Shown here: positions 1,567 through 30,442 of the stretch, one piece after another
Position numbering within the stretch: the stretch's first letter is position 1
Layout of the letters: each line of letters starts with the position of its first letter
IMG/VR virus record: IMGVR_UViG_3300024996_000004
From: a virus
DNA length: 64,000 nucleotides
Reading direction: 5' to 3' (one strand)
Notes under the pieces: generated by a model
The model's input: only the letters and a program-made list of their open reading frames with translations
The model's database searches: none
Told to the model about the DNA's origin: nothing
Made by a program: the position numbers and the translations under genes

Positions 1567-3129
1567 TTATGGATTCTTGACAAACCGAAGTTTCCCAGCA
1601 TCATATATTCGATTAAATCCATGAATATGCATATTCTCGACTTCAGTTAATTTCGGGTCATATGCGTGGAGTTTCTTTTTTAAATTCTTGTGTCGCCAGT
1701 TAAATTTGTGTTGACGTTCATAATGTTGTCCACATTTTATAATCCATGAATAATCAGGATTAAGTATTTTATCCACAGTAAATCCATTTTTATAATACAA
1801 ATCTCCATTGCTCCACATTAGATCAGCAAAGGTTATAATCTTTGGATAATTATATTTCGTTTCAAAATGTTTTAATAATTTTGAAAACCCTCCGACAACA
1901 TGACATGATGTTGCATATCTATTTAAGGTATAATAATTGTTATTCTTAATAAATCCCATAACGGCGACCAACTCATCGTTATGATATAATCCATAATTAA
2001 TAGAACTTGGACCATTGCCTTGAATATGATATTTGTTGAAGAATGCTATTTTAGTTTCTGGTTCAACATTTTTAATGGTTGTTTTACGTGCAAATATTTT
2101 TGGTAAATTCGATTTTCCTAAAATGTGAAGGAGTTTGGTTTTGATAATATCATTTTTTAGAATCCAATCATCTTCAAATATTTGAAGTAATTTAATTCCA
2201 TTTTTTGCAACTAAATCATGTTTTCTTTTATGATAATTTTTGTCTTTAAATGCATCAGAATGCCAATACATTCCATTAAATTCTATAGCAATCTTATGAG
2301 AAGGAATGTATATATCTATCTCATAAGGATTTATAATTTTTCTTGTATTTGTTATACATTTAAAGTTATTGGCCTCTATAAAGTTAACAACATCCTGTTC
2401 GAGTCCAGATGAAGGCAATATGATTATTTTTATACCAAATTCTTTCATTCTTCGTGCAACGGTGCTTCCACTAACATCGAGTATTTTAGATATTTTTTTA
2501 ACAGACAATCTGTTAATTTTGTGTTGAGTTTCTAACCATTCTTTATCTTTAAGAAGTTTTATAGACTTTGCTGGATAATGTTTTTTAACTTCATAATCAT
2601 GCCCCTTTAAAGGAATGTTATATTTTTTCAACCGTAATGCAATAAGTTTTCTATTGATTCCATATTTCTTTTCAATAGCGATCATACTAAGATCATTATC
2701 AATGTATTGTTCATAAAGCCATTTTGGATCATCTAATTTCATTATGGTATCGGATGACATATTTCTTTGGACTTGTATTTTGTGACTTATTAAAGGGATA
2801 TTAAACCGTTTTAACTGTCGTCTTAAAGAACCTCTATCAAACTTGAGGATTTTTGATATTTCTGTTAGTGATAATTTTTCTATATGATATTTGGCATATA
2901 ACCAATCTCTGTCGTTTATTAAAGCTAATGTGTTTTCATCTATATGATTTGTTCGTATAGCTGTTAAAGGCAAAGTAGCTATTTCGTGCAAATCTAAATA
3001 TCTTTTTATAGTATTTGTGCTAACTCCTAATTCTTTAGCTATATCAGTTTGATTCTTCTTTCGAATAATATATTGATCATATAACCAAGCTCTATCTTTT
3101 AGACACGTTTTTGCTATTTTTAATGACAT
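1567..3129 (-). mobile_element. Free-standing Hef-like PD-(D/E)XK homing endonuclease with tandem N-terminal HTH repeats
   Basis: Four ~57-aa repeats (D..WLY..Y.....S...I.K.L). Nuclease motif EIDIYIPSHKIAIEFNGMYWHS and typical C-terminal domain. ATG 3129 is the preferred start. Confidence 0.75.
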
Positions 3130-3224
3130 GATTAACTTAACTATTTTCTCAAAGATAACATGGAACATAATTAAATTCAAGAACAATTATATAACATAAA
3201 TATTTAAATAATAAACGATTTATC

Positions 3225-4817
3225 ATGGCAAGAAACCCAAAAGTTAAAAAGCCTTTTCAACAAACTGAATATACTAAAGAAATGATCGAAGAAATACGCA
3301 AATGTATGCTCGATCCTGTATATTTTGCGAATAATTATGTTTATATTTTGCATCCTGTTAAAGGTAAAATAAAATTTAAGCTTTACGATTATCAAATAGA
3401 AATGATGAGAGCTTATCAAAATAATCGTTGGTGCATATCTAAGGTATGTAGGCAGGCTGGTAAGACTGAATTAACAGCGACCTTCCTCATATGGCGAGCA
3501 TTATTTTTTTCTGATCAGACAATTCTTGTAGCTGCAAACAAATTAAGTAATGCCATGGAAATCATGAGCAGAATAAAAGGCGTCTATGAAGAACTTCCAG
3601 ATTGGATAAAATGTGGTATCGATGAATCACAATATAACAAGACTGCTATAGCATTCGAAAATGGTTCTAAGATAATGGCACAAGCTACGTCAGCTAACAC
3701 AGGTCGTGGTTATTCTATATCTACATTATATGTTGACGAAATGGCTCACATTGGAGCAACATCTGAAAGTGGGCCAAATCTAGCATTACAAAATGCTTTT
3801 TGGGCGTCTATCTTACCTATCTTATCAACGGGTGGTAATTTATGTTGCACTAGCACTCCAAATGGTGACAATGATTTATTTGCAACATTATGGCGTGGCG
3901 CAGTAGCTGGAACAAACCCATTTAAATACGTTGAAGTAGATTGGGAACAAGTTCCGCGAGATGTTAGTAAAGAAGAATTTATGCGAGATACCATAGCTCT
4001 TATCGGTGAAAGAAAGTTTAGGCAAGAATATAAATGTGAATTCATTTCTTCGGCACATACATTATTTGATAGTTTAGTCATATCTCAAGCCAAAGTTTCA
4101 GTACTTCCTGTTGTTGCACAAATTGGGGAATTGTATAATCAAGAATTTTGGAGAATTCCTAATACAAACAATACTTATATCGTTGGTGTCGATCCTTCAC
4201 AAGGAAGTGGTGGAGATTATTCTGTAATAGAAGTTTATGAATTTCCATCAATGGTACAGGTGGCAGAATATAGAACTAATGAACAATCGCCAGCAACATT
4301 GTATTCATATTTAAAATCTTTGTTAAAGTTTTTGGAAAATCATTCGAATCAAGTGTATTATTCGGTAGAAAATAATGCTTTGGGACAAGCTATCGTAGCA
4401 TTATATGAAGCTGATGTTAATCCATTAGAGAAAGCTATATTCATGTCAGAAGAAGGCAAGGATACATTAGGATATAATTCTAATATTAAAACGAAAGGTA
4501 AATCTTTAGTATCTTTTAAGGAATTATTTGAACGTGGTCAAATAAAAATAAATTCTATAACTTTATTAAATGAAATGACAACCTTAATTCGAAAAGATAA
4601 TACATTTAAAGCACAAACAGGAGCGACTGATGACTGTGTATTTGCTACGTTGATTGTTATTAGAATTATAGAAGATATGGCATCATTTGACGTAAATGCT
4701 TATAATAAGTTACACTCTTTCCAAAATGTAACCATAGAAAATTGGGATTATACTCCCACAGAAACAGAATCCGATGAAGATTTTGATTATGGATATATGC
4801 CCATTTCATCAGGCTAA
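3225..4817 (+). CDS. terL: Terminase large subunit (T4 gp17-like)
   Basis: LYDYQ, Walker A RQAGKT, Walker B LYVDE, STPNG, nuclease GVDPS and DDCV. Confidence 0.95.
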   Translation: MARNPKVKKPFQQTEYTKEMIEEIRKCMLDPVYFANNYVYILHPVKGKIKFKLYDYQIEMMRAYQNNRWCISKVCRQAGKTELTATFLIWRALFFSDQTILVAANKLSNAMEIMSRIKGVYEELPDWIKCGIDESQYNKTAIAFENGSKIMAQATSANTGRGYSISTLYVDEMAHIGATSESGPNLALQNAFWASILPILSTGGNLCCTSTPNGDNDLFATLWRGAVAGTNPFKYVEVDWEQVPRDVSKEEFMRDTIALIGERKFRQEYKCEFISSAHTLFDSLVISQAKVSVLPVVAQIGELYNQEFWRIPNTNNTYIVGVDPSQGSGGDYSVIEVYEFPSMVQVAEYRTNEQSPATLYSYLKSLLKFLENHSNQVYYSVENNALGQAIVALYEADVNPLEKAIFMSEEGKDTLGYNSNIKTKGKSLVSFKELFERGQIKINSITLLNEMTTLIRKDNTFKAQTGATDDCVFATLIVIRIIEDMASFDVNAYNKLHSFQNVTIENWDYTPTETESDEDFDYGYMPISSG

Positions 4818-8265: not shown

Positions 8266-8729
8266 AAATATTAAGGAAATTAAGAAATGACAATATTGAT
8301 GATTTCATTGATCCTATACTCGATGAGTTTGACGTAAAAATAAAAGATTATAAAAAAGATTTAAATCTTAGCAAAAAGAACATCAAAAATGCCAACATTG
8401 AACAAGCTTCATTATTGGCATATTATGATGAAATCCGAGTTGATCTTAAAATGTTGCTAGAACATTATGAAATGCGTGTGAAGCAAGTTCGTAGCGAAGC
8501 TTTGAAATTGATTCGTAATCATGGTTCATATGATAAAACTTCAACAGAAGTGGAAAAGATTATTGATTCTGATGCAAATTATTTAAAATATAAACGTATC
8601 TATAATGATGTATTAGAAATGTATACGCTATTAACATCCATATCCGATCAATTTAAAAGTCGTGCATATACTTTGAATAATCTTGTGAAAATATATGCTG
8701 CACAGTTAGAGGATATTACTCTTGAGTAA
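8262..8729 (+). CDS. uvsY: UvsY recombination mediator
   Basis: Helical ~155-aa protein with 'EKIIDSD' and 'FKSRAYTLNNLVK'; lies between uvsX and uvsW. Confidence 0.75.
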   Translation: MKILRKLRNDNIDDFIDPILDEFDVKIKDYKKDLNLSKKNIKNANIEQASLLAYYDEIRVDLKMLLEHYEMRVKQVRSEALKLIRNHGSYDKTSTEVEKIIDSDANYLKYKRIYNDVLEMYTLLTSISDQFKSRAYTLNNLVKIYAAQLEDITLE

Positions 8730-10206
8730 AAAAGCCATAGTAAAAATATTGGATGAAGTCAATTGTGTTATTATAGGAATTGATGATAAAGATCACAAAT
8801 ATTTTAAAACCAAATATTCACCTTTAGCCGAAGGATATTTTTTTAGTAAAAAATATAAATTGGGAGTATGGGATGGAACTATCTCATTTTATTCCAAAGC
8901 TGGAAAAACCTACGTTCAATTATTGGATGAAATTGTTCCAGAATTGATGAAACGTGGTTATAAAATAGAACTGATTGATAATCGTGAGTCATTTACATTA
9001 AATGTCCCAGAAATTGATAAAGATTATTTTAGTGATAATAATATTGAATTGGGTAAACATCAAGTAGATGCAGTAAACTCTATCATTAGAAATAATGGTG
9101 GCATTATTGTTGCTGCTACTGGGGCAGGTAAATCGTGGTGTGTGGCGGCATTAGCTGACTCCTATTATAAAGCATATGGATTTAAAGTTATTATTATTGT
9201 TCCAAGTGCCGATTTGATTGAACAGGGTGTTGAAGATTTTTTGGGATTGGGATTAGATGTCGGTCAATATAGTGGTGATACTAAAGACTTAGATCATCCT
9301 ATTATTATAAGCACATGGCAAAGCTTACAGAACAATCCAACTTTAGTGGGGATGTATCATGTAGCTATAGTCGATGAGTGCCACGGAACGAAAGGAAACG
9401 TATTAAAAGACATATTGAATAATTATGGTTCACATCTTTATGTTAGAATAGGAGTTACTGGTACATTACCTAAAGCCCCGGTTGATGCTATGTCAGTTAA
9501 AGTGACATTAGGAACACCACAATACATTATTACTGCGAAAGAATTAATTGATATGGGTTGGTTGGCTAAAATAAAGATTATCATTTTGGAATTGGAAGAA
9601 AATAAAAAAGCTGAATACGCTGCATGGAAAGTTAAATTTCCAGACGAAGCCGAACAATATACATATAAACAATTTTTACAAAAACTTTATCCTGATTATG
9701 ATTCTGAAAAGAGATATTTGAATACTTCTACAAAACGTATAGAATTTATTCAAGATGCAGTAAAGATTAATAGATTAAAAGATAAAGGTAATACACTTAT
9801 TCTCGTCAATGGTGTAGATGTAGGAAAGAAAATAGCTGAAGAAATTGAAGGATCACATTTTCTTTATGGTATGGACAAGAAAGCTTTTAGAAAAGAAATA
9901 TATAATCTATTCAAAGATCATGATGATATAGTGGTTATTGCTACATCACAGTTAGCATCAACCGGGTTGAATATTCCTCGAATATTTCATCTATATCTAG
10001 TAGACATTGGTAAATCTTACATAAGAGTTATTCAATCTATTGGTAGAGGATTGAGAAAGGCACACGACAAAGATTTTATTAATGTTGTTGACATTTCAAG
10101 TAATTTAAAGTATAGTAAAGAGCATCAAAATAAGCGCATTTTGCACTATAAAGAAGCTGGATATCCTTTTTCTAAAAACAAAATCGCATATACAAAAGGA
10201 TCATAA
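8722..10206 (+). CDS. uvsW: UvsW SF2 DNA helicase
   Basis: WDG.I, ATGAGKS, DECH, TGT, STGLNIP, QSIGRGLR. Confidence 0.92.
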   Translation: MSKKAIVKILDEVNCVIIGIDDKDHKYFKTKYSPLAEGYFFSKKYKLGVWDGTISFYSKAGKTYVQLLDEIVPELMKRGYKIELIDNRESFTLNVPEIDKDYFSDNNIELGKHQVDAVNSIIRNNGGIIVAATGAGKSWCVAALADSYYKAYGFKVIIIVPSADLIEQGVEDFLGLGLDVGQYSGDTKDLDHPIIISTWQSLQNNPTLVGMYHVAIVDECHGTKGNVLKDILNNYGSHLYVRIGVTGTLPKAPVDAMSVKVTLGTPQYIITAKELIDMGWLAKIKIIILELEENKKAEYAAWKVKFPDEAEQYTYKQFLQKLYPDYDSEKRYLNTSTKRIEFIQDAVKINRLKDKGNTLILVNGVDVGKKIAEEIEGSHFLYGMDKKAFRKEIYNLFKDHDDIVVIATSQLASTGLNIPRIFHLYLVDIGKSYIRVIQSIGRGLRKAHDKDFINVVDISSNLKYSKEHQNKRILHYKEAGYPFSKNKIAYTKGS

Positions 10207-10694
10207 TGGTAATTTCAGACGAAAATTCGTTTCCTATAATTATTGACAATATTACAACACCATTAACTATGGATTATTTTTGGGTGTTAGATTTAGAGCA
10301 ACGCGATTTTATGTTGACTAAATTGGAAACTTTAGAAGAACACACGACTCCCGTAATTGTCCTTAATATATTAGGTTATATTGTGGAAGTTCCTGCTAAT
10401 TGGAACATTTTAGTATATTCAAAAGAAACTTCACAATTGGAAATTGCTGAAATATCTGAAATTCTTAGAGGAAGTTTTACCGCTTTCGTTTTTGATCATA
10501 AGAAAGGAGTAAATATTCCCGGATATATAAAAGGTATCCATTATTATCCACGATGGCAAATACATACTCCATCATTAAACAAATATCAAATGTTGTGTCA
10601 TCATTTAGGTGAAAAATATTGGATATGTGTTTCACCCATAGATAATTATAATAAGTACTTAAAGGGTACTGCTATAGGCGATATATTACCTTAA
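10206..10694 (+). CDS. Conserved hypothetical protein (uvsW-linked)
   Basis: TAATG translational coupling to uvsW. Confidence 0.6.
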   Translation: MVISDENSFPIIIDNITTPLTMDYFWVLDLEQRDFMLTKLETLEEHTTPVIVLNILGYIVEVPANWNILVYSKETSQLEIAEISEILRGSFTAFVFDHKKGVNIPGYIKGIHYYPRWQIHTPSLNKYQMLCHHLGEKYWICVSPIDNYNKYLKGTAIGDILP

Positions 10695-11095: not shown

Positions 11096-11650
11096 ATGAA
11101 AACGATATTGAAAGATAGAGTGCTCTGGTATGATGGTTCTATAACCTTTACACCAGATCAATTAACTGATTTTGTGCTTAATGGTGGGCAGATCACTCCG
11201 GGAATATATGTTGATGCATTAAATTCTGAAATAGAATCATTTAACAGACTAAATCCATCATTAATATTAAATGTTAAACGAGATTTAGACCATTTAGATC
11301 AAACATGGAATATTCCAAAGAAATATAAAGACATAAATATACGTAATTATGTTCATAAACAATTGTTGGATGAAACTGAAAAACGTTTGAAGGCCGATAA
11401 ACCTTTTAATGACGATGAAGTGAATATCAGACTAGATAGAATAGAAGAAGAATTAGAGCTATATGAATCGTATGACATGAACATTATCATAAAAACGATT
11501 ATATATATTGTAGATACTTTCAAAGAAAATGAAATAATCTGGGGTACGGGTAGAGGAAGTTCCTGTAGTTCATATATCCTGTATCTTATTGGATTACATA
11601 ACGTAGATAGTGTATTTTACGAATTAGATTTGAAAGAGTTTTTTAAATAA
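11096..11650 (+). CDS. DNA polymerase III alpha (DnaE)-like protein, N-terminal piece
   Basis: R...EL, GTGRGSSCSSYILYLIG and terminal 'LDLKEFFK', matching DnaE GPGRGS.AGSLVAY.L.IT..DP....L.FERFL. ATG 11096 preferred. Confidence 0.8.
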   Translation: MKTILKDRVLWYDGSITFTPDQLTDFVLNGGQITPGIYVDALNSEIESFNRLNPSLILNVKRDLDHLDQTWNIPKKYKDINIRNYVHKQLLDETEKRLKADKPFNDDEVNIRLDRIEEELELYESYDMNIIIKTIIYIVDTFKENEIIWGTGRGSSCSSYILYLIGLHNVDSVFYELDLKEFFK

Positions 11651-11661
11651 CGAGAACCTAT

Positions 11662-11988
11662 ATGACAAAACATAAAACCATGCGTGGACAAGAAGTTGAT
11701 GTTGATTTGATTAAAATGAAACAAGAATTAATGCAAGGCAAAAAAACTGATGCTATTATTAAGCGTGAGGATCATATTAATGATCGTCGCCGTAGATCAT
11801 CATCTCGCAGGATTAATGAAATGTTGGCAAATGAACAAATTGTTAGACAAAAGCTTTTGGATAAATCGAAATCTGAAACAGTCGCTTTGGCTGAAAACAT
11901 TGTTGAAAAGCCTTCAAAAGTTGATGATGTCTCTACAGAAGGTTTAGAAACACCGAAACAAAAACGTGTTATCAAAAAACAGGCTTAA
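11662..11988 (+). CDS. Hypothetical protein
   Basis: Basic ORF starting 'KTMRGQEVD'; in operon. Confidence 0.55.
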   Translation: MTKHKTMRGQEVDVDLIKMKQELMQGKKTDAIIKREDHINDRRRRSSSRRINEMLANEQIVRQKLLDKSKSETVALAENIVEKPSKVDDVSTEGLETPKQKRVIKKQA

Positions 11989-11990
11989 TC

Positions 11991-12326
11991 ATGATAGATA
12001 AATTCGATAACATAGATAATTACAATCCATTGGGTTCCAATATTATATTTTCATTCTTACAAGATATAGAAAGTGGAACTTTTACTAATACCACATCATG
12101 GGGATTAGAGATGCGAAACAAAATCGAAGATGTAAAAACATCTCGTTGGGCTATAGTTAATCGAGTCGGACCCGAGGTGCCTAAGCATATAAAAGTGGGA
12201 ACTTATATTCTTATTGAGCAGTTGATGTGGACAGAAGGATTTAAAGTTAATGAAGCCAAGAAATGGACAACCAACTATTCAAAATTGTTAGCTCATAGTG
12301 AAAAAGAACCTGTTGGAATATTTTAA
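11991..12326 (+). CDS. GroES-like co-chaperonin
   Basis: PLG..I.F, 'AIV..VGPEV..IKVG.YIL'; size fits. Confidence 0.6.
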   Translation: MIDKFDNIDNYNPLGSNIIFSFLQDIESGTFTNTTSWGLEMRNKIEDVKTSRWAIVNRVGPEVPKHIKVGTYILIEQLMWTEGFKVNEAKKWTTNYSKLLAHSEKEPVGIF

Positions 12327-12338
12327 GGAAATTGACAC

Positions 12339-13148
12339 ATGTTCGCATATTTGTTAATGTTAGCGGCGGCAGCACTTGCAAGTGCTGCCGGTTTTTTTAG
12401 TATTTACGGATTATCTCAAATATATTCAGCTTCAGCTATTTCCATCATTATTATGGGAATTAGTCTAGAATACAGCAAATTAATTACAGCGTCTCTATTA
12501 TACAGATATTGGAAAAAATTAAATAAATTATTCAAGTTACTACTAACATCGGCTGTCATATGCTTAATGATATTAACATCTGCGGGAGTATTTGGATATT
12601 TGATGGCATCTTATCAATCAATCAATGCGCCTGTAACACAAATTACGCAACAACTAGAACAAGATAAAATAGAGTTACAACGATTAACCGCAAGAAAGTC
12701 TCAAATAGATTTACAAATTGCTCAATTGCCTAATAACTATGTTACAGCTAGAAAAAATTTAATGAAATCATTTGAACCAGAATATAGTTCATTAACACCT
12801 AAAATAGACAAGTTAAACGCAGAAATATCACAACTACAAACAACTAAAGTAGATACTACAACCAAAGTAGGCCCAGTAATGTATGTAGCGAAAGTGTTAA
12901 ATAAGAATCCAGATGATGTTATATTCTATTTAACAGTATTGTTAGTTTTGGTATTCGATCCTCTTGCTGTAGGATTAACGATAGCTTCAAATATGGTATT
13001 AGCAGACAATAAAAAGGTTATCAAACCTGAAACAGAACCAGTTGATAATGATACTGCTGTAAATCATCAAGAAAAGATCGAACCTGAAATCAAGCAATCT
13101 ATTATGGATGATATTCGTAAAGATTTAAACGAAAGAATAACCTTATAA
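12339..13148 (+). CDS. Membrane protein with coiled coil
   Basis: Three N-terminal TM segments, heptad region, C-terminal TM 'VFDPLAV'. Confidence 0.65.
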   Translation: MFAYLLMLAAAALASAAGFFSIYGLSQIYSASAISIIIMGISLEYSKLITASLLYRYWKKLNKLFKLLLTSAVICLMILTSAGVFGYLMASYQSINAPVTQITQQLEQDKIELQRLTARKSQIDLQIAQLPNNYVTARKNLMKSFEPEYSSLTPKIDKLNAEISQLQTTKVDTTTKVGPVMYVAKVLNKNPDDVIFYLTVLLVLVFDPLAVGLTIASNMVLADNKKVIKPETEPVDNDTAVNHQEKIEPEIKQSIMDDIRKDLNERITL

Positions 13149-13210
13149 TTAACCGATCTTGAATTTAAACATCATGTATGCAATAATCCCAGCATTATAT
13201 GGGACTTCAC

Positions 13211-14143
13211 ATGACAAAAGAAATATGGGATCGTAAGTATTTACCTTCAAAAGCATCGGAATATATTTTTCAAAATTCTTCTCATCAAGAATTAATTTCA
13301 AAGTTTATTAACGAAAAAACGTTTCCACATTTATTATTATCAGGTCATCGTGGAACGGGTAAGACAAGTTTAGCATATTTACTCAAGTCTGAATTGCATA
13401 TTGAAGATATTGATTTTTTAAAGATCAATGCTTCTGATGAAAATAACGTAGATACAGTTAGATCGAAGATTAAAGATTTTATTAGTTCGATGGCTATGTC
13501 AGGTGATTTTAAAATAGTTTTCCTTGATGAAGCCGATTATTTATCTGCAGCCGCGCAAGCCATATTACGTAACATGATGGAAGAATATTCTGATAATGCA
13601 AAGTTTATTTTAACATGCAATAAACCCCAAAAAATCATTCCAGAATTAAAATCACGATGCCTAGAGATTAAATACGATGCATTAGATAAAGATGAGATGA
13701 CTATCCGATTTGGAGTCATATTGAAGAATGAGAAAGTCAAAATATCTGATTTAGATTTATTGGATGAATATGTCAATTCATGTTATCCAGATTTTCGAAA
13801 ATTGCTTATTACCGCACAACATGGTGTGAAAGACGGTGTATTACAACCTTTTCACAATATGCTTTCTGATACTTCAGAATATATGGTAAAAGTTATTGGT
13901 TATATAGAATCCGATGATTGGGTTTCTGCCAGAACATTTCTTGCCGAGAATGTACCAGATGACAAATGGGAAGAATGTTATAGATTTTTATATGATTATC
14001 TTCATGAAATTGGCAAATTTACTACACAAAAAAATTGGAAAGCAGGCATCGTAATCATATCGGATCATTTGTATAGACACGCTTTCGTCGCTGATCCAGA
14101 AATGAATTTTGCGGCATGTTTAATTAGATTATCTGAGGTATAA
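13211..14143 (+). CDS. Clamp loader large subunit (T4 gp44/RFC-like AAA+)
   Basis: W..KY.P, GHRGTGKT, INASD, LDEAD, SRC. Confidence 0.92.
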   Translation: MTKEIWDRKYLPSKASEYIFQNSSHQELISKFINEKTFPHLLLSGHRGTGKTSLAYLLKSELHIEDIDFLKINASDENNVDTVRSKIKDFISSMAMSGDFKIVFLDEADYLSAAAQAILRNMMEEYSDNAKFILTCNKPQKIIPELKSRCLEIKYDALDKDEMTIRFGVILKNEKVKISDLDLLDEYVNSCYPDFRKLLITAQHGVKDGVLQPFHNMLSDTSEYMVKVIGYIESDDWVSARTFLAENVPDDKWEECYRFLYDYLHEIGKFTTQKNWKAGIVIISDHLYRHAFVADPEMNFAACLIRLSEV

Positions 14144-14146
14144 AAT

Positions 14147-14476
14147 ATGGTATTACATTACGTTGATGAAGAAAAATATGCTGCTGATATTGAAAAGATA
14201 TCGAAGCACCGTGATAAGAATGAAAGACTTTCATGGAAAAGAAAAAAGGATAAAATCGAAAGTTTAGTCAAAGAACTCGAACCAATCGAAGATGAAATTC
14301 TCAAATTAATAGAAGAAAAGAAGTATCCACTTCTTAATCAAATTGAAGAATTGCGTGCTATTATGGTAAAGGAATGTGTACATCCTAAAGATTTATTGGT
14401 TCATTATGGTTCATATGTTATGTGTAAATTCTGTGAAGCGAAAATTGCAGTCGTGGCGAAACCTGTAGATGAATAA
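14147..14476 (+). CDS. Hypothetical protein with Cys/His zinc motif
   Basis: ECVHP...CKFC. Confidence 0.55.
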   Translation: MVLHYVDEEKYAADIEKISKHRDKNERLSWKRKKDKIESLVKELEPIEDEILKLIEEKKYPLLNQIEELRAIMVKECVHPKDLLVHYGSYVMCKFCEAKIAVVAKPVDE

Positions 14477-14927
14477 TGATAAAAAATTTGATATATTTGA
14501 TATCATCAAAAAAATAACTAATCATGATATACAATTCTTTGATAATTTAGAAGATTATCAAATCAAACAAATATACCCATTTGTATTGATGCGATGGTTG
14601 GGCGGAAGCAAAACCGCTTTACAATTGAAACAATTGAATGATATTGTTAATACAACATGCTTTCAATTTTATAGACATCCCAAATTATTATACAAATTAT
14701 TGATGGTGTCTTGTGCAGATAATAAAAGAGTATCATGGATAAAATTAAAGAATAAAGTTAAACATAATGAAATATTAAATGTTATAATGAAATATTATGA
14801 TTGCTCATCTCGTGATGCACAAGATTATTTGAAATTAATATCCAACGATGATATTTTAGATATGGCAGAGCTATTAGGATTAGAAAAAGATGTTATGTCA
14901 AAATTAAAAAAAGAATTAAATGCATAA
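14469..14927 (+). CDS. Clamp loader small subunit (gp62-like)
   Basis: PFVLMRWL, 'HPKLLYKLL', 'KYYDCS..DA..YL'; near the large subunit. Confidence 0.7.
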   Translation: MNNDKKFDIFDIIKKITNHDIQFFDNLEDYQIKQIYPFVLMRWLGGSKTALQLKQLNDIVNTTCFQFYRHPKLLYKLLMVSCADNKRVSWIKLKNKVKHNEILNVIMKYYDCSSRDAQDYLKLISNDDILDMAELLGLEKDVMSKLKKELNA

Positions 14928-15597
14928 TGAAATGGTATGTGATTTTTGTCACAAAAACTTTAAACGTGAATGTTATTATTTAAACCACAAATGCAAATTT
15001 ATGGAACGTGTTGAATTATTCAAGAAACCTCTTGGGCAAACAGCGTATTTGATATTTAATCAATGGAGAAAAATATGCAAGTATCCTAGCGTTACTGTAG
15101 ATACCTTTGTTAAATCAAAATATTTCAATTCCTTCATAAATTATACTAAATTCACTCAACAACAATCTGTTCCAGATAAAATGGGATACATTGAACTTAT
15201 GGTTGAAAAAGGTATTATGCCGTATTCATGGTGTGATTCTGATGTTTATGATTTTTACATTGAAAATTTTGATAATGAATACACCATAGATCAAAAAATT
15301 GATGTATCAATTACAACTTTACAAGAATTATCGCGTAAACATGATTGTGAGATAGGTAAAATATTTGAACGCATCTCACCTATTCAAGTGATAAAATATA
15401 TAACGTCGAGAAAATTATCTCCATGGTTATTATTACCGAGCGAAAAATTTATGCATTTTATTACGTATAAAACTAATAAAGAAGAACGCATGTTATTTCG
15501 ATCTTTTGTGAATATTAGTGTATGGAAACAACATTTTATCGACAATCCCGAAAAATTGATAGAAATTAAAGAAATAAACAGACAATTAGGAATATAA
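14920..15597 (+). CDS. Zinc-finger hypothetical protein
   Basis: N-terminal CDFC...F......HKC. Confidence 0.55.
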   Translation: MHNEMVCDFCHKNFKRECYYLNHKCKFMERVELFKKPLGQTAYLIFNQWRKICKYPSVTVDTFVKSKYFNSFINYTKFTQQQSVPDKMGYIELMVEKGIMPYSWCDSDVYDFYIENFDNEYTIDQKIDVSITTLQELSRKHDCEIGKIFERISPIQVIKYITSRKLSPWLLLPSEKFMHFITYKTNKEERMLFRSFVNISVWKQHFIDNPEKLIEIKEINRQLGI

Positions 15598-15602
15598 AAC
15601 CA

Positions 15603-15610
15603 TATAAATA
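15603..15610 (+). promoter_or_regulatory. T4-type late promoter
   Basis: TATAAATA upstream of structural genes. The same motif occurs at 51241, 58201 and 61901 (+) and at 1423 and 21164 (-); CATAAATA at 3195, 22430, 58603 (+) and 41164, 43498 (-). Confidence 0.75.
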
Positions 15611-15634
15611 ATAGAATAATTGTAGATATGGTCG

Positions 15635-17056
15635 ATGACAACGAATTGTGCGGATGGTGTTTATAACATTAAGTATACGGATAAAGCCAAAAATCCTATT
15701 ATTGTTAATAAAAAAACTTTAATACAAAATGTTCTAGATATTATATTATTAGGTAAATCCAGAAGAGAATATGGTGAAGCTTTTGATGATAACATCCTTC
15801 ATATGTTGGAGAATTTTTCAGCACCTGAAAATCCTGATTCTCCCGGAACACCAGATTACTCTGGAATATATTCAAATCTATTAGAAAATCCTGCAAATGG
15901 GCAGTTTTGGTATAACTCTACCAAAAAACATTTATGTTTTTTCAATGGTGTCAATTGGATATCGCTTGGTGATGCAACAGACGTTGCCGGAAATAGTGGA
16001 ATCATATCTGATGGAGAACAATTACCCAATCCAGTATCTGCTACAACAGGATATGTTTTTCCATATAATGAATGTGTGTGGGTAGTATCACCTACTAATC
16101 TACCTGATGAAGTTGATTATATGGTTTGTTATACAGATGATACGGCTAATGTTACTAGTCAATATAGAGCGGCTAATAGTGGAACCATTAGTAGTGGTGA
16201 AGCTTTTTATAAAATTGTTGGTATAAAAGGGAATATTAATCATGGTAGTAATAATCCCGTCATTCCTATAATTCCAAGTCCAACACCAATTCCACCAGTT
16301 TCACAATCTCCATTGCCAACGCCGGGAGTAACACCATCTATTACGCAATCTGCAGCTGCTACGCCAACACCGACAGTAACTATGACAGTTACCCCGAGTC
16401 CTACACCAGTACCTTCTAGAACGCCTACAGCGAGCGTTGCACCGTTAGCTGCAGTTTTATACATTTCACCATCTAAAGGTTATCCTCAAGGTGTTAATAC
16501 AGCTATCGTAACTCCATGTTATACTACAAGTACATCAGATACCGCATGTTTTGCAAATATGTCAGTTATATTACAAAATATAAGTGGCGGAACTGCACCA
16601 TATTCTGTAGATATGACTAATGTAATATTTAATTCTAATGTTATTAATACTGCTACTGGAACGACAGTAGGATCAACAACATCGCAGACATATTCAGGGG
16701 CATCAGGAGCATCAACAAATCCAGTAAGAACTGGTTGTACAACAACCAGTACATTACAAGTTAAATCTATTATTTCATTAACTGCCGGAAACGTTTTACA
16801 TTGTAACAACGGTCAATGGACATTTAGCATTAATGCTGGAAGTTATGTATTGATTACGGATTCAATGGGCAGAACATTGAAATTATATACTCCTTCAGGA
16901 TTGTCAGGAAACGTCTATGGAACAGCTTACACGACTCCACAAGGCGTCTATTCAGATTCGTATTATTCAACAGGAAGTTGTTCTAGTGGCGGAGGAAGCG
17001 GTGGAGATAAAAGTGGTGGCGGTGGTTTAGGTTCTGTAGTAATAAGACCGGAATAA
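15635..17056 (+). CDS. Virion structural (baseplate/fibre-type) protein with Pro/Thr linker
   Basis: N-terminal YGE...N.L..LENF..P...GQ.WYN domain, (PT)n linker, beta-rich C-terminus; late promoter. Confidence 0.65.
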   Translation: MTTNCADGVYNIKYTDKAKNPIIVNKKTLIQNVLDIILLGKSRREYGEAFDDNILHMLENFSAPENPDSPGTPDYSGIYSNLLENPANGQFWYNSTKKHLCFFNGVNWISLGDATDVAGNSGIISDGEQLPNPVSATTGYVFPYNECVWVVSPTNLPDEVDYMVCYTDDTANVTSQYRAANSGTISSGEAFYKIVGIKGNINHGSNNPVIPIIPSPTPIPPVSQSPLPTPGVTPSITQSAAATPTPTVTMTVTPSPTPVPSRTPTASVAPLAAVLYISPSKGYPQGVNTAIVTPCYTTSTSDTACFANMSVILQNISGGTAPYSVDMTNVIFNSNVINTATGTTVGSTTSQTYSGASGASTNPVRTGCTTTSTLQVKSIISLTAGNVLHCNNGQWTFSINAGSYVLITDSMGRTLKLYTPSGLSGNVYGTAYTTPQGVYSDSYYSTGSCSSGGGSGGDKSGGGGLGSVVIRPE

Positions 17057-17060
17057 TGCT

Positions 17061-17669
17061 ATGAATTATACAATAAATTATACAGACAACACAAAAACTC
17101 CTATAATAGTTCCAGAGAATACAGTAAACGATGATACACTCGATGTTGTATTATTCGGTCGTGTTGATCTAGAGTATGGTGAACAATTAAACGAAAACAT
17201 GCTCCAAATGTTGGAACGTTTTGCATGTCCTCAAGATAGTACTTCACCTTTTAATAACACTTTCCCTGATTATACTATAAATGGTGATTCGTTAAAACAT
17301 CCTACGGAAGGACAAATTTGGTTCAATAGTACAGCAAAATTGTTATATACATGGGATGAAACACGATGGGTTCCCTTGAGAATAACAGGCTCAATAGCAG
17401 GAAATTATGGACAATTATTAGATGGTTCACGTATACCGTTACCAGTAAATCCAACAAATGGTTATGTATTCTCATATGATGAATGTATATGGGCAGTATC
17501 GCCAGCTAGTATCCCACAAGCTTTCACTTCACTAACTTGTAATACTGATAATGAGGCAACAGTCACTATGCAATATACTGTATATGGTGGAGCTACTATT
17601 TCTGGGGTAGCTAATTACATTATCATGGGCATTCCACAAAATATTAATCTTGGAACTTTGGGAGCGTAA
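17061..17669 (+). CDS. Virion structural protein, paralog consisting of the N-terminal domain only
   Basis: Same domain as 15635 and 17848. Confidence 0.65.
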   Translation: MNYTINYTDNTKTPIIVPENTVNDDTLDVVLFGRVDLEYGEQLNENMLQMLERFACPQDSTSPFNNTFPDYTINGDSLKHPTEGQIWFNSTAKLLYTWDETRWVPLRITGSIAGNYGQLLDGSRIPLPVNPTNGYVFSYDECIWAVSPASIPQAFTSLTCNTDNEATVTMQYTVYGGATISGVANYIIMGIPQNINLGTLGA

Positions 17670-17671
17670 TC

Positions 17672-17842
17672 ATGTTTATATTAGTGAATAAGCAAACTAA
17701 AGTCATTATCGGCTCTGCAATTAAGTATATAAATAATGAAGCTAATGATTCAGAAAATATGGTATATCAAATACCTGATAATGAATTTTCTTCTACAATA
17801 GTCGGAATGGTGTTAGAAAGCTTTGATGAATGGAATGATTAA
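17672..17842 (+). CDS. Small hypothetical protein (56 aa, MFILVNKQTKVIIGSA...)
   Basis: Not in the ORF track; fills the gap between structural genes exactly. Confidence 0.55.
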   Translation: MFILVNKQTKVIIGSAIKYINNEANDSENMVYQIPDNEFSSTIVGMVLESFDEWND

Positions 17843-17847
17843 AAATA

Positions 17848-19095
17848 ATGTCATATACAATAAATTTTACTGATAAAACTAAAACACCAATTATTGTAGC
17901 TGATGATACAGTAGATAGAAGTACAGACATATCATTATTTGGTCGTACTGAATTAATGTATGGACAAGAATTACAAGAAAATCTCTTGCACATATTAGAA
18001 AATTTTGCATGTCCAGAAGACCCCGAAAATCCGGGAAATCCTGATTTATCTAAAGCTGTAGAAAATATATTTGTCAATGTAATAGAAGGACAAGGATGGT
18101 ACAATTCGACTCAAGAAAAGGTATATTTTTATGACGGTTCTGTTTGGGTTCCATTATCTAGAGTAGATGATGTTGCAGGCAATTCTGGCACTATCTCACA
18201 TGGACAATACTTACCCAAACCTATTAGTTATGCAACTGGAAGTGTATTCGATTATCCAGAATGCATTTGGTTAGTTAGTCCTATGAATTTTCCATCAGAA
18301 ATAGATTATTTGATTTGTGAAGCTGATGATACTGGATTAGTTACATCACAATATAAATTACAGGGTGTAGATTTATTAATAGATGGTATTGCGAACTATA
18401 CAATTATTGGTATTCGTGGAAATGTTAATCAACCAGAACCTAGTTTCATTGCTTCGCCAACGCCAACACCAACACCAACAGTTACCCCAACATTATCGGT
18501 TGGTGCTTCGCCAACACCCGCTGCCACACAAACGAGAACACCAGTTGCCTCACATACACCATCACCAGCTCCGGCTTCAACACATACAAGAACGCCAACA
18601 CCAACTGTAACACCATCTAAGTCTGTTCCAGCATTAGGACCATTGCCAATACAAGGACAAAGCTTTAGTGCGACAGATGCTAACACGGCTTATTGTGGAG
18701 GATCAAATCCTCATGGTGGTAATGCTTCTGTAGGATTTGTGTTTAATCCTAATGGAACATTCTCAGTAACGCCACAATCCGGCCATAGATTACCAGACCC
18801 GCCAACATATGGAACATGGTTGCCTTCTGGTCAATCTGCAAGCGATTGGCAAATCAAATTCGTTAGTGTATTATCTCAAATAGGAAGTCAACCCTGTTCA
18901 GAAACTAACAGCGCCGCAACATTTCAAACTTTGACAGCTACGCAAGTTTATTCTCTTAGCGGATTCGTTAAGTGTGGTTCAGCAGCAGATCAAGGCACTG
19001 AATCTTCATTGACTATATCACTAAAACAAACATCAACAGGTCAATTAGTTAATACAACTTGCTCTGTAACAGTACAAGCGATATCTCAAGTTTAA
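17848..19095 (+). CDS. Virion structural/fibre protein with Pro/Thr linker
   Basis: Paralogous N-domain, (PT)n linker, C-domain shared with 58632. Confidence 0.65.
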   Translation: MSYTINFTDKTKTPIIVADDTVDRSTDISLFGRTELMYGQELQENLLHILENFACPEDPENPGNPDLSKAVENIFVNVIEGQGWYNSTQEKVYFYDGSVWVPLSRVDDVAGNSGTISHGQYLPKPISYATGSVFDYPECIWLVSPMNFPSEIDYLICEADDTGLVTSQYKLQGVDLLIDGIANYTIIGIRGNVNQPEPSFIASPTPTPTPTVTPTLSVGASPTPAATQTRTPVASHTPSPAPASTHTRTPTPTVTPSKSVPALGPLPIQGQSFSATDANTAYCGGSNPHGGNASVGFVFNPNGTFSVTPQSGHRLPDPPTYGTWLPSGQSASDWQIKFVSVLSQIGSQPCSETNSAATFQTLTATQVYSLSGFVKCGSAADQGTESSLTISLKQTSTGQLVNTTCSVTVQAISQV

Positions 19096-19098
19096 TTT

Positions 19099-19752
19099 AT
19101 GATTAAAAAGATAAAAAATTTGAAACTTTCAAAATCACAACGACAGTTGGATAATGAATGGATCGAAATAAAATCATTAAGAAATAAATTACTAAAAAAC
19201 AGTGATTGGATTTTTGTACCAGATAATAATTTAGATGAAGATAATATTTCTTTATGGATCATATGGAGACAAAATGTAAGAGATGTCAATATGATCACTC
19301 ATGCTGACGAAGCCTTAAAATATCTATTAGATTTACAAAATAATAAACCGCCCGTCAAATATAAGTTAACTGAACATTCATCATTGTCAATTTATAAACT
19401 TGATCTGCGCAAGTTATTAAATAAATTAATCAAACAAACTGTAGACAAAATTCATGATGATATGGAAAGTAGAGAAATATTATCTGAACAATTTGATGAG
19501 GCTATAAGGTTTCTTGAAGGAAAAATTGAAAACAATTTCTTAATTGAATTAGAAGCTTCTCATTCTAAAATGACTCATACACAAGTAGCCGAAAAATTTA
19601 TTGAGCAACGAAAAACATATTACATAAAACTTGTCAATATTGAACAGGTTAAAAATAACCTTATTACCAGAATAGATGTCGCAAACGATCTTGAAACTTG
19701 TAAAATTGTGCATCAAGATATTTTAAAACTTGGTTCAAAAAAATGGATATAA
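19099..19752 (+). CDS. Tail fibre assembly chaperone-like protein
   Basis: 'LRNKLLKNSDW..PD...W..WRQ..RD' motif; follows fibre genes. Confidence 0.6.
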   Translation: MIKKIKNLKLSKSQRQLDNEWIEIKSLRNKLLKNSDWIFVPDNNLDEDNISLWIIWRQNVRDVNMITHADEALKYLLDLQNNKPPVKYKLTEHSSLSIYKLDLRKLLNKLIKQTVDKIHDDMESREILSEQFDEAIRFLEGKIENNFLIELEASHSKMTHTQVAEKFIEQRKTYYIKLVNIEQVKNNLITRIDVANDLETCKIVHQDILKLGSKKWI

Positions 19753-19803
19753 TTGCTTTAAGTTGAATAATATTCTACAATGTGTCAATAGAAGGTATTA
19801 TAA

Positions 19804-20376
19804 ATGGATATTGATATTGACATAAGTTCTAAAGTTAAGCCTGAACAACTATTTGATAAGATAAGATTGGCTTCTATGATTAGTCATGATAACAAATTAG
19901 TTAAACACAATGTTGGAACTTATTTTCAAAACATTCCCATTGATCCTGTGACTAATTTGTCTGCTATACCTTATAAAGAAGCTCAAGATTTCGGCTATTT
20001 TAAAATAGATATGTTACATTTAAATGTGTTAGATATGTTTCAATCAAAAGACCAAATGAATGAACTTTTAGAAAAAACACCTAAATGGGATTTATTATTG
20101 GAAAGAGATAATGTTGCTAAATTATTTCAATTATCCAACCAATTTGAAACAGTTTATGCGACTAAACCTAAAAGTATTCTTGAACTAGCTGATACTGTAG
20201 CTTTAATTAGACCTAATAAACAGAAGCTTCTGGATAAATATTTAAAGAATAAAAAAGAAGTGCGTAAAGAATTGTATATGCATAGAAATCCAGAAGATTT
20301 GAGAAAATCTCATGCAATTCCATATGCTATGATAATTGTTTTGCAACTTCATCTTATAGAACAAGGATTATTATGA
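19804..20376 (+). CDS. DNA polymerase III alpha (DnaE)-like protein, catalytic C-terminal piece
   Basis: Starts MDIDID (PDxDxD). Also KHNVG, GYFKIDML, LFQL, P.SI.ELA..VALIRP and KSHAIPYA. Confidence 0.82.
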   Translation: MDIDIDISSKVKPEQLFDKIRLASMISHDNKLVKHNVGTYFQNIPIDPVTNLSAIPYKEAQDFGYFKIDMLHLNVLDMFQSKDQMNELLEKTPKWDLLLERDNVAKLFQLSNQFETVYATKPKSILELADTVALIRPNKQKLLDKYLKNKKEVRKELYMHRNPEDLRKSHAIPYAMIIVLQLHLIEQGLL

Positions 20377-20735
20377 GTTTATTAAGTGATTTATTAGAAG
20401 CGACATTGTTACCAAATCTGACTGATACTCAAAAGGGTATGTTGATTGCCATTAATGCTTCAGCAACACCACAACAGGCATATGAAGTAAGCAGTGGTAC
20501 ATCATTAACCACCATAGCCAAAGATGAACTCATTAGAATGGGTATGATTATCCAAAATGGTAATAATTTGGAATTAACACAATTGGGTCAAGATGCATTG
20601 AATTCTAATAACTTAATAGATCAATCGGGTGAAATAACAGATGAAGGTCAAGAAAAGTTAGATATGTTAAACATCAGTAAACAAGAATACATAAACTTAG
20701 AATCTTTTGAGATGCTTAAATCGTTTTATCAGTAA
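20373..20735 (+). CDS. Hypothetical (winged-helix-like) protein
   Basis: 'LIRMG.I......LT.LG' repeats; N-terminal LLE/A. Confidence 0.5.
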   Translation: MSLLSDLLEATLLPNLTDTQKGMLIAINASATPQQAYEVSSGTSLTTIAKDELIRMGMIIQNGNNLELTQLGQDALNSNNLIDQSGEITDEGQEKLDMLNISKQEYINLESFEMLKSFYQ

Positions 20736-21150
20736 ATTCAACACCCTTTGGAATTGATTTTTTCTTTCTTCTTTTGATTTTAATTGGACCTTTCATTTGA
20801 TATTTGTAAATGGGACCAATAATTCGTATAATAAAATCTGTTGAAAAGCATCGAATAATCTGCGTCATGTCTTTGGCAACATCTTGTTTAAAGAACTCTA
20901 TGGATATGGGATATTCATCTTTTTTGTTTTCATACCAATAATTAGCGATATCAATAATTTCTTGTTCATTGATATTCGCATGATGACAAAAATCTAATAC
21001 ATAAGCGATAACTTGGTTGTTGATAATATTATCAACAATCGTTAAATAATTTTGATCATTATATTTTATTAATGTAATAAATTCATATCCAGTATAATCC
21101 TTTGGATGTTCTTCTACAATAAGTGGTTGAAAAGTTGAATGTTTTTTCAT
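20716..21150 (-). CDS. Conserved hypothetical late protein
   Basis: TATAAATA upstream on the minus strand; basic C-terminus. Confidence 0.6.
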   Translation of the reverse strand: MKKHSTFQPLIVEEHPKDYTGYEFITLIKYNDQNYLTIVDNIINNQVIAYVLDFCHHANINEQEIIDIANYWYENKKDEYPISIEFFKQDVAKDMTQIIRCFSTDFIIRIIGPIYKYQMKGPIKIKRRKKKSIPKGVEFTDKTI

Positions 21151-21202: not shown

Positions 21203-22015
21203 TTAAGGACAAGTACCCCAAACTGGTCTAGGTAATATCCATGAAGATGCTCCAGTATCAAAATTTGTAGGCAATGATGCAATATTTGTCACGCACCATC
21301 CAGATAAATCCTTATTAAATGTTGATGCATTTTGGAACATGGAAATCATATCAGTTACATTACTGGTATCCCATGATGATATGTCTTGATTAAATGCTTG
21401 AGCATCCCAGAACATACCTTTCATGTATGTTACATTACTAACATTCCAAGATGAAATATTTTGGTTAAATACTGTAGCACCATTAAACATATAGCTCATA
21501 TCCGTAACATTACTAGTATTCCATGTTGAAATGTTTCCATTAAATTCCACAGCATCATAGAACATGTTGCTCATATCAGTAACATTAGATGTATCCCATC
21601 CTGACAAATCTTGATTAAATGATGCCGCACCATTAAACATACTTTTCGTCATTGTTAATGTTGAAGGTATAGAATTAGGAACAGCTATAATATCTTCAGG
21701 TAATTTTATGCCTTCAATATCATATGTACCCCAAGAAATTATTGTAGATGTGCTAGAAATTTCGCCAAAATTATCCAACAAATAAAAATATAAAGGAGGA
21801 TATGAATTTGTCGAATGATAATCGCCGTAAATCTTAATAGTATAATCACCTACTATAGCATAATTATGAGTTATTCCATGGCGGCAGACATCATCACTAC
21901 CATCAGGATTACCGTCAGGAATATTATCAATAGTACCATCACCCCAATCTATTGATGCATTATTACTAGCACCACAAGCAGAAAATTCATATCCATCTGC
22001 GTTAGTAACATTCAT
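21203..22015 (-). CDS. DUF285/BspA-like surface-repeat protein with PKD-like N-domain
   Basis: IDWGDG..H.Y...G.YTI; tandem 25-aa repeats FNQD(I/L)S.W(D/N)TSNVTDM..MF. Confidence 0.8.
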   Translation of the reverse strand: MNVTNADGYEFSACGASNNASIDWGDGTIDNIPDGNPDGSDDVCRHGITHNYAIVGDYTIKIYGDYHSTNSYPPLYFYLLDNFGEISSTSTIISWGTYDIEGIKLPEDIIAVPNSIPSTLTMTKSMFNGAASFNQDLSGWDTSNVTDMSNMFYDAVEFNGNISTWNTSNVTDMSYMFNGATVFNQNISSWNVSNVTYMKGMFWDAQAFNQDISSWDTSNVTDMISMFQNASTFNKDLSGWCVTNIASLPTNFDTGASSWILPRPVWGTCP

Positions 22016-29123: not shown

Positions 29124-29270
29124 AAAGAAGGGATGCCTTTACATGGCCGAAAGGATAGTAATAAATTAATCTTGATAAATTATTTAATACTGATACAATA
29201 TCGATAAATACAAGTAACTTTCAAATAGGTGGAAGTTATATTAAAAAATAAACTCAAAAAGGTGAGTTAT

Positions 29271-30389
29271 ATGACAGATAAACAACGTTATCCTTATATT
29301 TGGGCATGTCTAATCGGAAAATTTTCTCCGATGCACAAAGGCCATCAACATCTCATTGTTGAAGCATTAAAACAAACAAAATATTTGATTATCCTCGTAG
29401 GAAGTCACAATCGCACACTTGATTATGATGTGCCATGGACTTCTTATGAACGCATTGAAATGATTAAAGCATCATTAACTGATGAACAACAAAATCGAAT
29501 TTTCTTCCAAGTGATTGAAGATCGCATCTATTCAGATGTTGAATGGAAAACGATGGCACAAGAAAAAATTGATTCCATTCTTCTCCAATATTCACGTTAT
29601 CGCTTAAATGCAATTGATGCAAAAAAACAAGTCAATATGGCTATTTTTGGTTATAATAAAGATGTAACATCCTTTTATCTAACTGCATTTCCAAACTTAA
29701 AGTATGTAGAACTTCCAAAATACTCATTTGAGGATGAACAACTTCCTTTAAATGCTACTGATATTCGCAAATCTTTTTATGATGGCTATCATGGTCGCAT
29801 CAAAGATTGGATGCCAGAGGGGACATATCAATGGTTAAAAGACAATTGGTTTGATACTGAACGTGAGCAATATATGCAAGAATGGTACATATTCGATTTA
29901 GAATATGAAAAAAATTATTTGCATTATCCGTATGCAGTAAATTTCTATACTACTGATATTATTGTATGTCATCGTTCATTTATTCTCCTTGTTAAGCGTA
30001 AAGGATGGCCTTACAAGGATGTTTATGCTTTCCCCGGAGGCCACATCAATGCAGATGAAACTGCCTATGATGCGGCTATTAGAGAGCTTAGAGAAGAAAC
30101 TCAAATAAAACTTTCTGATAGTAAATTGAATAATAGTTTTAAAGTTCAAAAATTATTTGATGCGCCCAATCGTTCTAAGCGTTGTCGAGTAACAACGAAG
30201 AAAGGTCGAACTGTAACAATTGCACATTTATTTGTTTTAGATGACAATTGGGAAAGACCACATGTTGAAGCAGGAGATGATGCAGCGGATGTGGTATGGG
30301 TATCTTTTGCCGACTTCAAAAACATGAGAAATCAATTGATGGAAGATCATTGTGACGTTGGTGTTGCAATGATGAAATATCTAAACTGA
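29271..30389 (+). CDS. Bifunctional NMN adenylyltransferase / ADP-ribose pyrophosphatase (NadM-Nudix, NatV-like)
   Basis: GKFSPMHKGH, NATDIR, Nudix box GGHINADETAYDAAIRELREET, GDDA. Confidence 0.92.
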   Translation: MTDKQRYPYIWACLIGKFSPMHKGHQHLIVEALKQTKYLIILVGSHNRTLDYDVPWTSYERIEMIKASLTDEQQNRIFFQVIEDRIYSDVEWKTMAQEKIDSILLQYSRYRLNAIDAKKQVNMAIFGYNKDVTSFYLTAFPNLKYVELPKYSFEDEQLPLNATDIRKSFYDGYHGRIKDWMPEGTYQWLKDNWFDTEREQYMQEWYIFDLEYEKNYLHYPYAVNFYTTDIIVCHRSFILLVKRKGWPYKDVYAFPGGHINADETAYDAAIRELREETQIKLSDSKLNNSFKVQKLFDAPNRSKRCRVTTKKGRTVTIAHLFVLDDNWERPHVEAGDDAADVVWVSFADFKNMRNQLMEDHCDVGVAMMKYLN

Positions 30390-30442
30390 TATAAAACAGG
30401 TTATATCAAAAATAAAAATAATCGTCTAATAGGAGACATATA

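Follow-up and report, generated by a model that had tools for sequence, protein, structure and literature searches.

Two distant genes for the halves of a minimal, split Pol III alpha in an uncultured jumbo phage

Results

The window, that is, the whole stretch of 64,000 nucleotides analysed here from IMG/VR virus record IMGVR_UViG_3300024996_000004, is AT-rich phage DNA (~31% GC) with genes for a large terminase, a gp32-like single-stranded DNA-binding protein (SSB), UvsX, a UvsW-like helicase, an RFC/gp44-like clamp loader, NAD salvage and an NAD-dependent ligase. Its forward strand carries two short open reading frames (ORFs), at 11096..11650 (184 amino acids, aa) and 19804..20376 (190 aa), which an initial sequence-only reading had described as a miniature DnaE polymerase broken in two just before a catalytic motif. 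Both ORFs and all the motifs quoted for them are present, and our analysis confirms that they are the two halves, here termed half 1 and half 2, of a family C polymerase core. Their membership in the "minimal, split Pol III alpha" that Iyer, Anantharaman, Krishnan, Burroughs and Aravind described from sequence in group 2.2 jumbo phages (Iyer et al. 2021, Viruses 13:63; PMC7824862) is close to certain.

Half 1 (11096..11650, + strand) corresponds to the nucleotide-binding half of the palm. The Pfam profile PF07733 (DNA_pol3_alpha) matches it with an E-value of 3.7e-10, the alignment covering positions 9-93 of the 260 in the profile, which make up the palm segment ahead of the DxD motif, and phrog_11127, a PHROGs family of suitable length labelled 'DNA polymerase', matches it with an E-value of 1.3e-45. 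An ATG at 11096 is favoured as the start over a TTG at 11063 because the consensus of its homologues begins with MxxxTxLKDR, and the protein ends in ...WGTGRGSSCSSYILYLIGLHNVDSVFYELDLKEFFK, with LKEFFK as its last residues. The AlphaFold2 model of half 1 (predicted local distance difference test, pLDDT, 94.0) superposes through residues 70-184 on residues 276-393 of E. coli Pol III alpha, with a Z-score of 13.4 and a root-mean-square deviation of 2.5 A over 107 residues; across 48,161 PDB representatives, Z-scores of at least 8 were reached by family C polymerases only, the next best score being 3.9. In HMMER alignments WGTGRGSS of half 1 pairs with GPGRGSGAGS of the E. coli protein, which places the GRGS loop at residues 152-155, and the terminal ...KEFFK pairs with ...FERFLN (393). 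Eight residues (W149, G150, G152, R153, G154, S155, H168 and D171) are invariant among 53 half-1 sequences.

The first 69 residues of half 1 are modelled as an extra small alpha/beta domain that is not a PHP domain. They have no DnaE counterpart and gave no fold match in the PDB when searched within the whole half-1 model, rather than folded alone. This N-terminal domain is shortened or absent in some lineages, and for PA5oct and phages of the 121Q type, tblastn coverage of half 1 starts between residues 25 and 42.

Half 2 (19804..20376, + strand) combines the palm's metal-binding half with a trimmed core of the fingers. It opens with MDIDIDIS and continues with KIDML, LFQL, ALIRP and KSHAIPYA; against Taq alpha, HMMER pairs DIDID with PDIDTD, KIDML with KMDFL, ALIRP with LYRPGP and KSHAIPYA with NKSHAAAYS. 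Matches were obtained to PF17657 (DNA_pol3_finger, E 6.7e-7) in Pfam and to phrog_11778 (E 6.3e-63), again a PHROGs family of suitable length. In its AlphaFold2 model (pLDDT 96.9), residues 1-190 superpose on residues 401-783 of E. coli alpha and 462-840 of Taq alpha (Z 10.4-10.7, 183-188 residues), so that 190 residues stand in for ~380 of the bacterial proteins and the thumb and the finger tip have been removed. Among 93 half-2 sequences, reaching down to 26% identity, D2, D4, K67, D69 and P137 are invariant, and D6, R136, K139, K167 and H170 are conserved in at least 90%; this set includes the metal-binding residues of the palm (D2, D4 and D69) and those of the fingers core (R136, K139, K167 and H170).

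The catalytic centre is divided between the two chains

Since half 1 covers alpha residues 276-393 and half 2 residues 401-783, the two pieces are contiguous and non-overlapping on DnaE, even though 8,153 bases with 14 listed forward-strand ORFs separate their genes. Judging from the alignments, the cut sits in a short loop that leads from the nucleotide-binding helix-loop to the first metal-binding strand. In the models, the palm part of half 1 is helical and the beta-sheet comes from half 2, and a complete active site is predicted in neither chain, the catalytic centre being apportioned between the two. The features by which family C is recognized, a Pol-beta-like palm with the GS loop and three catalytic carboxylates, are thus all present, spread over two proteins. 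A PHP domain N-terminal to the palm is not found, half 1 having a 69-residue non-PHP N-terminus, and neither the thumb nor the full fingers, the beta-clamp-binding/HhH or the OB domain is present in the pair.

Cyanobacteria also encode DnaE in two distant genes, dnaE-n and dnaE-c, and there intein fragments splice the halves into a full-length chain. This precedent, together with the intein in the PolB of a related phage (PMC6892783), invites the idea that the halves of the window are joined covalently as well, either after translation by a split intein or at the RNA level. However, half 1 ends at the equivalent of FERFL and half 2 has a single residue (Met) before DxD, which leaves no room for an intein; no residues are available for intein N- or C-terminal fragments, no Cys, Ser or Thr occupies the +1 position, and the consensus termini of the whole family leave no intein space either. 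A split-intein or trans-spliced DnaE is hence ruled out by termini (...LKEFFK / MDIDID) that carry neither intein fragments nor a +1 nucleophile; the sequence-only reading had likewise noted no intein motifs at either end. Covalent joining in any form seems to us extremely improbable. The window and the cyanobacteria share a family C polymerase made from two distant genes, but in the window intein residues are missing, the active site itself is cut and the product has to remain in two chains.

A large family with a constant break point

At 90% identity, the relatives of half 2 that are close to it in length form 953 clusters. When 1.84 billion representatives were searched exhaustively, 261 matches at 50% identity were returned. 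Most of the 150 half-2 representatives listed are 180-215 aa long, with the match beginning no more than ~12 residues from the N-terminus/DxD, and the 105 relatives of half 1 span 161-276 aa, all but one being of 207 aa or less. Longer forms were sought among homologues of 406-2000 aa, where ordinary full-length DnaE was recovered, with lengths of 333-406 aa spanned by the representative search only; in the ESM Atlas, nothing was found beyond the protein's own family. Almost all relatives are split at the same point, and the conservation of the break point, which had been put forward as a check on the original proposal, speaks for it, as does the constancy of the lengths.

The two halves are 61% and 56% identical to those of the 350-kb relative G001 (a level similar to the 60% of the clamp-loader ATPase), 45-63% identical to those of XacN1/Xoo-sp13 and 30-35% identical to those of PA5oct. 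With the nearest relatives only ~60% identical in protein, synonymous sites are saturated. Among GenBank phages, tblastn detects half 2 in 96 records and half 1 in 93. Alishewanella phage Slicko01 and Vibrio phage 2.275.O appear in the half-2 matches and not among the half-1 matches listed, but a profile search recovered half 1 in both (E 1.4e-19 and 2e-31, respectively), and both halves were found in every phage record that was profile-searched. In Alishewanella phage vB_AspM_Slicko01 (OQ508956.1, 141 kb) they lie at 67597-68151 and 79035-79511, and hence the pair is not limited to genomes above 200 kb.

Three metagenomic proteins carry both halves in a single chain. P0341 (375 aa) joins the N-half to the C-half through a 10-residue linker, P0358 (336 aa) has the same order and dispenses with the extra N-terminal domain, and P0325 (398 aa) is a circular permutation, with the C-half first and the palm part of the N-half second. 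In a tree with full-length DnaE as the root, P0341 and P0358 nest apart from each other among split forms, and the branch of P0325 is long and unresolved. When all split forms are constrained to a single clade, the likelihood drops by 43 lnL units, and the approximately unbiased (AU) test gives a p-value of 0.016; this comparison was made on a 46-row subset under LG+G4. From these results, the split looks ancestral for the clade and the fusions secondary. Scans of IMG/VR and JGI metagenomes did not turn up fused forms. Rare as they are, these three fusions support the notion that the halves constitute one two-chain enzyme.

Short, distant ORFs that lack most DnaE domains might also be the decaying remnants of a full-length DnaE, or two independent proteins such as non-catalytic replisome parts. 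Decay or independence is nonetheless very improbable in our judgement, given that the catalytic and nucleotide-binding residues are invariant in relatives down to 26-38% identity to the window, that break point and lengths are constant, and that the halves co-occur and no fewer than three fusions of them have arisen. The claim that a ~370-aa two-chain nucleotidyltransferase has been maintained by selection rather than left to decay is accordingly backed by family size, invariant residues, co-occurrence and fusions.

A conserved replication and recombination module

The genes around the two halves recur in relatives in two blocks. Block A is headed by a UvsW-like superfamily 2 (SF2) helicase (8722..10206, +), with a ResIII match at E 3.9e-22, a Helicase_C match and a sub-threshold match to UvsW_N (23.3 bits against a cut-off of 25.3). 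In XacN1, PA5oct, Atu_ph07 and the IMG/VR relatives L009-L013, a helicase of this kind precedes half 1 or half 2 by 2-5 genes and is in each case followed, as in the window, by a homologue of the conserved protein at 10206..10694 (+), which matches phrog_11279 (E 5.4e-39) and, in profile searches, neither Pfam nor PDB sequences. Further members of block A are a small, gp62-like clamp-loader subunit (14469..14927, +; phrog_225, 'clamp loader of DNA polymerase', E 3.5e-9), found upstream of half 2 also in PA5oct, Atu_ph07 and Slicko01, and a 225-aa zinc-finger protein (14920..15597, +; phrog_11058, E 9.4e-46). The latter gave no match in Pfam or PDB; in an alignment of 12 sequences, its zinc finger C7-x2-C10-x12-H23-x-C25 and the residues S167-P168-W169 are invariant. 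In most relatives, including distant ones (PA5oct, Atu_ph07 and IMG/VR loci), its gene is the one that precedes half 2; some, such as Atu_ph07, have one or two small ORFs in between. Its product is a candidate partner of the mini-polymerase. Half 2 itself and a convergent small ORF (20716..21150, -) complete the block. This ORF has counterparts at the same place in L001-L008 (49-78% identity) and Atu_ph07 (26%), and has no Pfam match; minus-strand ORFs of similar size follow half 2 in PA5oct, Slicko01 and Vibrio phage 2.275.O. A primase and a DnaB-type helicase lie further along block A in relatives.

Block B consists of half 1, a small ORF, an ORF annotated as GroES-like in PA5oct, 121Q and Atu_ph07, and the large clamp-loader subunit, T4 gp44/RFC-like (13199..14143, +; AAA, DNA_pol3_delta2 and Gp44_lid matches), which lies 1-1.6 kb downstream of half 1 in XacN1, PA5oct, Atu_ph07 and 121Q; ahead of the clamp loader, the window and XacN1 also have a membrane protein. 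The two blocks are 43 kb apart in PA5oct and 182 kb apart in Atu_ph07; the block B arrangement is seen around half 1 in 121Q, and 30 kb separate the halves in Vibrio phage 2.275.O. In the window, XacN1 and their IMG/VR relatives, block B lies within block A, so that the gp44 and gp62 genes stay adjacent, as in T4. Two halves flanking the clamp-loader genes looks like the older gene order.

The distance between the halves in the window owes as much to an inserted fibre cassette (15635..19752, +) as to this order, the 8-kb gap being made up of ~4 kb of replication genes and ~4 kb of fibre genes placed inside the replication module. The cassette encodes three fibre-like paralogues and also contains a small ORF and a gene resembling a tail-fibre assembly chaperone (19099-19752; PF16778, Phage_tail_APC, E 4.9e-7). 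The paralogues share an N-terminal domain of ~200 aa (44% identity over ~250 aa), which a Pro/Thr-rich linker connects to unrelated C-ends. No such cassette is present at this place in PA5oct, Atu_ph07 or L009-L013, and a larger one, with seven genes of this kind, is found in XacN1. A further subgroup trait is the 120-aa ORF at 20373..20735 (+), the start codon of which shares ATGA with the stop codon of half 2. It has weak winged helix-turn-helix-type Pfam hints only and is restricted to the XacN1-like subgroup, with homologues directly after half 2 in L001, L002 and L004-L008 and not in PA5oct or Atu_ph07. A scan for promoters and terminators performed no better than on shuffled sequence.

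A probable second polymerase beside a family B replicase

In T4, gene 43 sits just after the clamp-loader genes. As half 2 occupies this very place in the window, and as no family B polymerase is encoded by the ten largest ORFs of the 64-kb window, the pair could conceivably be the main replicative polymerase of the phage. The relatives point elsewhere. A family B polymerase was found in each of the six that were searched whole (XacN1, G001, Slicko01, Atu_ph07, PA5oct and 121Q), which bears on the suggestion in the original reading that a separate replicative polymerase be looked for; these enzymes are 800-1000 aa long or come in split versions, that of Slicko01 being split-looking. The same holds for the group as analysed by Iyer et al. 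(PMC7824862). The whole records of five relatives contain no PHP (PF02811) or HHH_6 (PF14579) domain and at most one DNA_pol3_finger match each (none in PA5oct), in keeping with the list of lost domains given by the sequence-only reading. Because the relatives tested have a family B polymerase and no PHP/HhH, the mini-Pol III is best seen as a second polymerase. A core without thumb, clamp binding or exonuclease is moreover unlikely to serve a genome of ~300 kb, and we therefore hold a main-replicase role to be highly unlikely.

Other features of the window

Several other features of the window were recorded. A phage-encoded, permuted transfer-messenger RNA (tmRNA) is located at 51244-51637 (+), with a match of 100.9 bits to Rfam RF04321 (tmRNA_permuted) at 51279-51546 and an ARAGORN-predicted tag peptide ANDSSFALNDYALAA. 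A 539-aa HNH homing endonuclease (phrog_3339, E 2.8e-102) and the large terminase are divergently arranged side by side at 1567-3186 (-) / 3225-4817 (+). The segments at 29229-31834 (+) and 53940-55868 (+) hold an NAD salvage pair, formed by a NadR-like NMN adenylyltransferase/Nudix protein and a nicotinamide phosphoribosyltransferase, and the NAD-dependent DNA ligase. On the minority strand, a 1221-aa ORF without PHROG match (37462-41127, -) falls in the GC-richest part of the window (0.36-0.38 vs ~0.31), and a DUF285 (BspA-like repeat) protein (21203-22015, -; PF03382, E 7.3e-55) belongs to a short minus-strand block just downstream of half 2.

Discussion

The pair described here is a further example, apparently from an uncultured jumbo phage, of a family that is already in print. 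Iyer et al. (PMC7824862) proposed that the two proteins reconstitute one enzyme beside the family B polymerase, with a role in one-strand synthesis or in repair. Their split Pol III alpha agrees with that of the window in having a nucleoside triphosphate-binding N half and an Mg- and template-binding C half encoded by separate, distant genes, in the presence of T4-like accessory genes, of which the window holds the gp32-like SSB, UvsX, UvsW and the gp44/gp62-like clamp loader, and probably also, to judge from the relatives of the window, in lacking any other Pol III domain and in being accompanied by a family B polymerase; we see no essential difference between the two. The novelty that the sequence-only reading had attached to the split pair does not stand in view of this 2021 publication, although its remark that such short DnaE-like ORFs had not been defined biochemically holds for the literature that we could find. 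What is added here to the text of Iyer et al. are the re-fusions, one of them permuted, the placement of the halves on either side of the clamp-loader genes and the occurrence of the pair in a 141-kb phage.

The structural comparison with bacterial Pol III alpha (DnaE, as in E. coli 2HNH/5FKU and Taq 2HPI/3E0D) and PolC suggests how such an enzyme might operate. The palm, the GS loop, the three Asp residues and the RP and KSH..Y motifs are shared. DnaE, however, is a single chain of more than 1100 aa, whereas the pair amounts to ~374 aa in two chains, has no PHP, thumb, finger tip, beta-binding/HhH, OB or tau-binding parts, and bears in half 1 an N-terminal domain of ~70 residues for which DnaE offers no counterpart. 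Half 1 would provide the helical N-terminal part of a Pol-beta-like palm, with the GRGS loop holding the triphosphate of the incoming nucleotide. Half 2 would contribute the beta-sheet with the metal-binding D2, D4 and D69, as well as a part of the fingers expected to touch nucleotide and template via R136, K167 and H170, the last being the putative counterpart of the steric-gate His of DnaE. The working form is most likely a non-covalent heterodimer of ~374 residues with a composite catalytic centre, and we consider the association of the halves to be probable. That the heterodimer carries out templated synthesis of DNA is also favoured, if somewhat less firmly, and DNA made on a template is the most plausible product. 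Without PHP, thumb, clamp-binding/HhH and OB domains, the enzyme would be non-proofreading, poorly processive alone and probably dependent on partners.

The fold would, on the other hand, accommodate a different activity. The Pol-beta fold family is functionally versatile, and the pair might be a nucleotidyltransferase of this superfamily that no longer copies DNA and that tails DNA or RNA 3' ends without a template, or makes a signalling molecule or a modified nucleotide. Such a role would fit with the loss of all the parts with which DnaE grips DNA (thumb, HhH/beta-binding, OB), with the presence of a family B replicase in all relatives tested and with RNA-related extras in the window such as the tmRNA. 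Yet the fingers motifs that have been retained are DnaE-specific and contact the deoxynucleoside triphosphate and the template, including the KSH His of the steric gate, and the neighbouring genes encode SSB, UvsX, UvsW, clamp loader and primase/helicase rather than RNA-repair or defence functions. A non-copying nucleotidyltransferase thus appears unlikely, albeit less so than the other alternatives discussed above.

Since the genes of the pair lie inside a recombination and replication module, whose members are the gp32-like SSB, UvsX, UvsW and the clamp loader, with primase and helicase next in relatives, an accessory job in replication, recombination-dependent synthesis or repair is the most likely one. 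Taken as a whole, the interpretation of the pair as a non-covalent two-chain family C core with a composite site, acting as an accessory DNA polymerase in replication or recombination, is in our opinion a likely one. Dimer formation, polymerase activity and biological role are, here as in the literature, inferred. Several points weigh against this interpretation. The absence of thumb and HhH/clamp-binding domains leaves DNA binding unexplained, no clamp-binding motif was found in the pair, and we found no biochemical or structural study of a split mini-Pol III in the literature. For both the family B polymerase and the missing Pol III domains, the evidence comes solely from the genomes of relatives. 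As for the fusions, each is a singleton or doubleton represented by one or two short metagenome contigs, and the hypothesis submitted to the AU test was set up after the first tree had been inspected.

A more specific role can be envisaged in which the pair is a dedicated polymerase for recombination-dependent (D-loop or gap) synthesis, working with the UvsW-like helicase, UvsX and the clamp loader, and in which the two-chain site serves as an assembly switch, restricting activity to sites at which both halves come together with their partners. We regard this proposal as speculative and rather doubtful; if true, it would amount to a new kind of two-polymerase phage replisome, built with the smallest known family C polymerase. 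A functional analogy is provided by the Firmicutes, where PolC and DnaE form a two-polymerase replisome with an exonuclease-less second family C polymerase. In the phages, by contrast, the main replicase would be of family B and the second enzyme a minimal two-chain core.

With the idea in print since 2021 and the family very common in phage metagenomes, what the window contributes is an example and some comparative detail rather than a discovery. If active, the pair would represent the smallest family C DNA polymerase (~374 residues) and a natural case of a polymerase active site assembled from two chains. As such, it would help to work out what the minimal catalytic core of the bacterial replicase consists of, and would bear on why large T4-like phages keep a second polymerase beside their recombination and clamp-loading genes.

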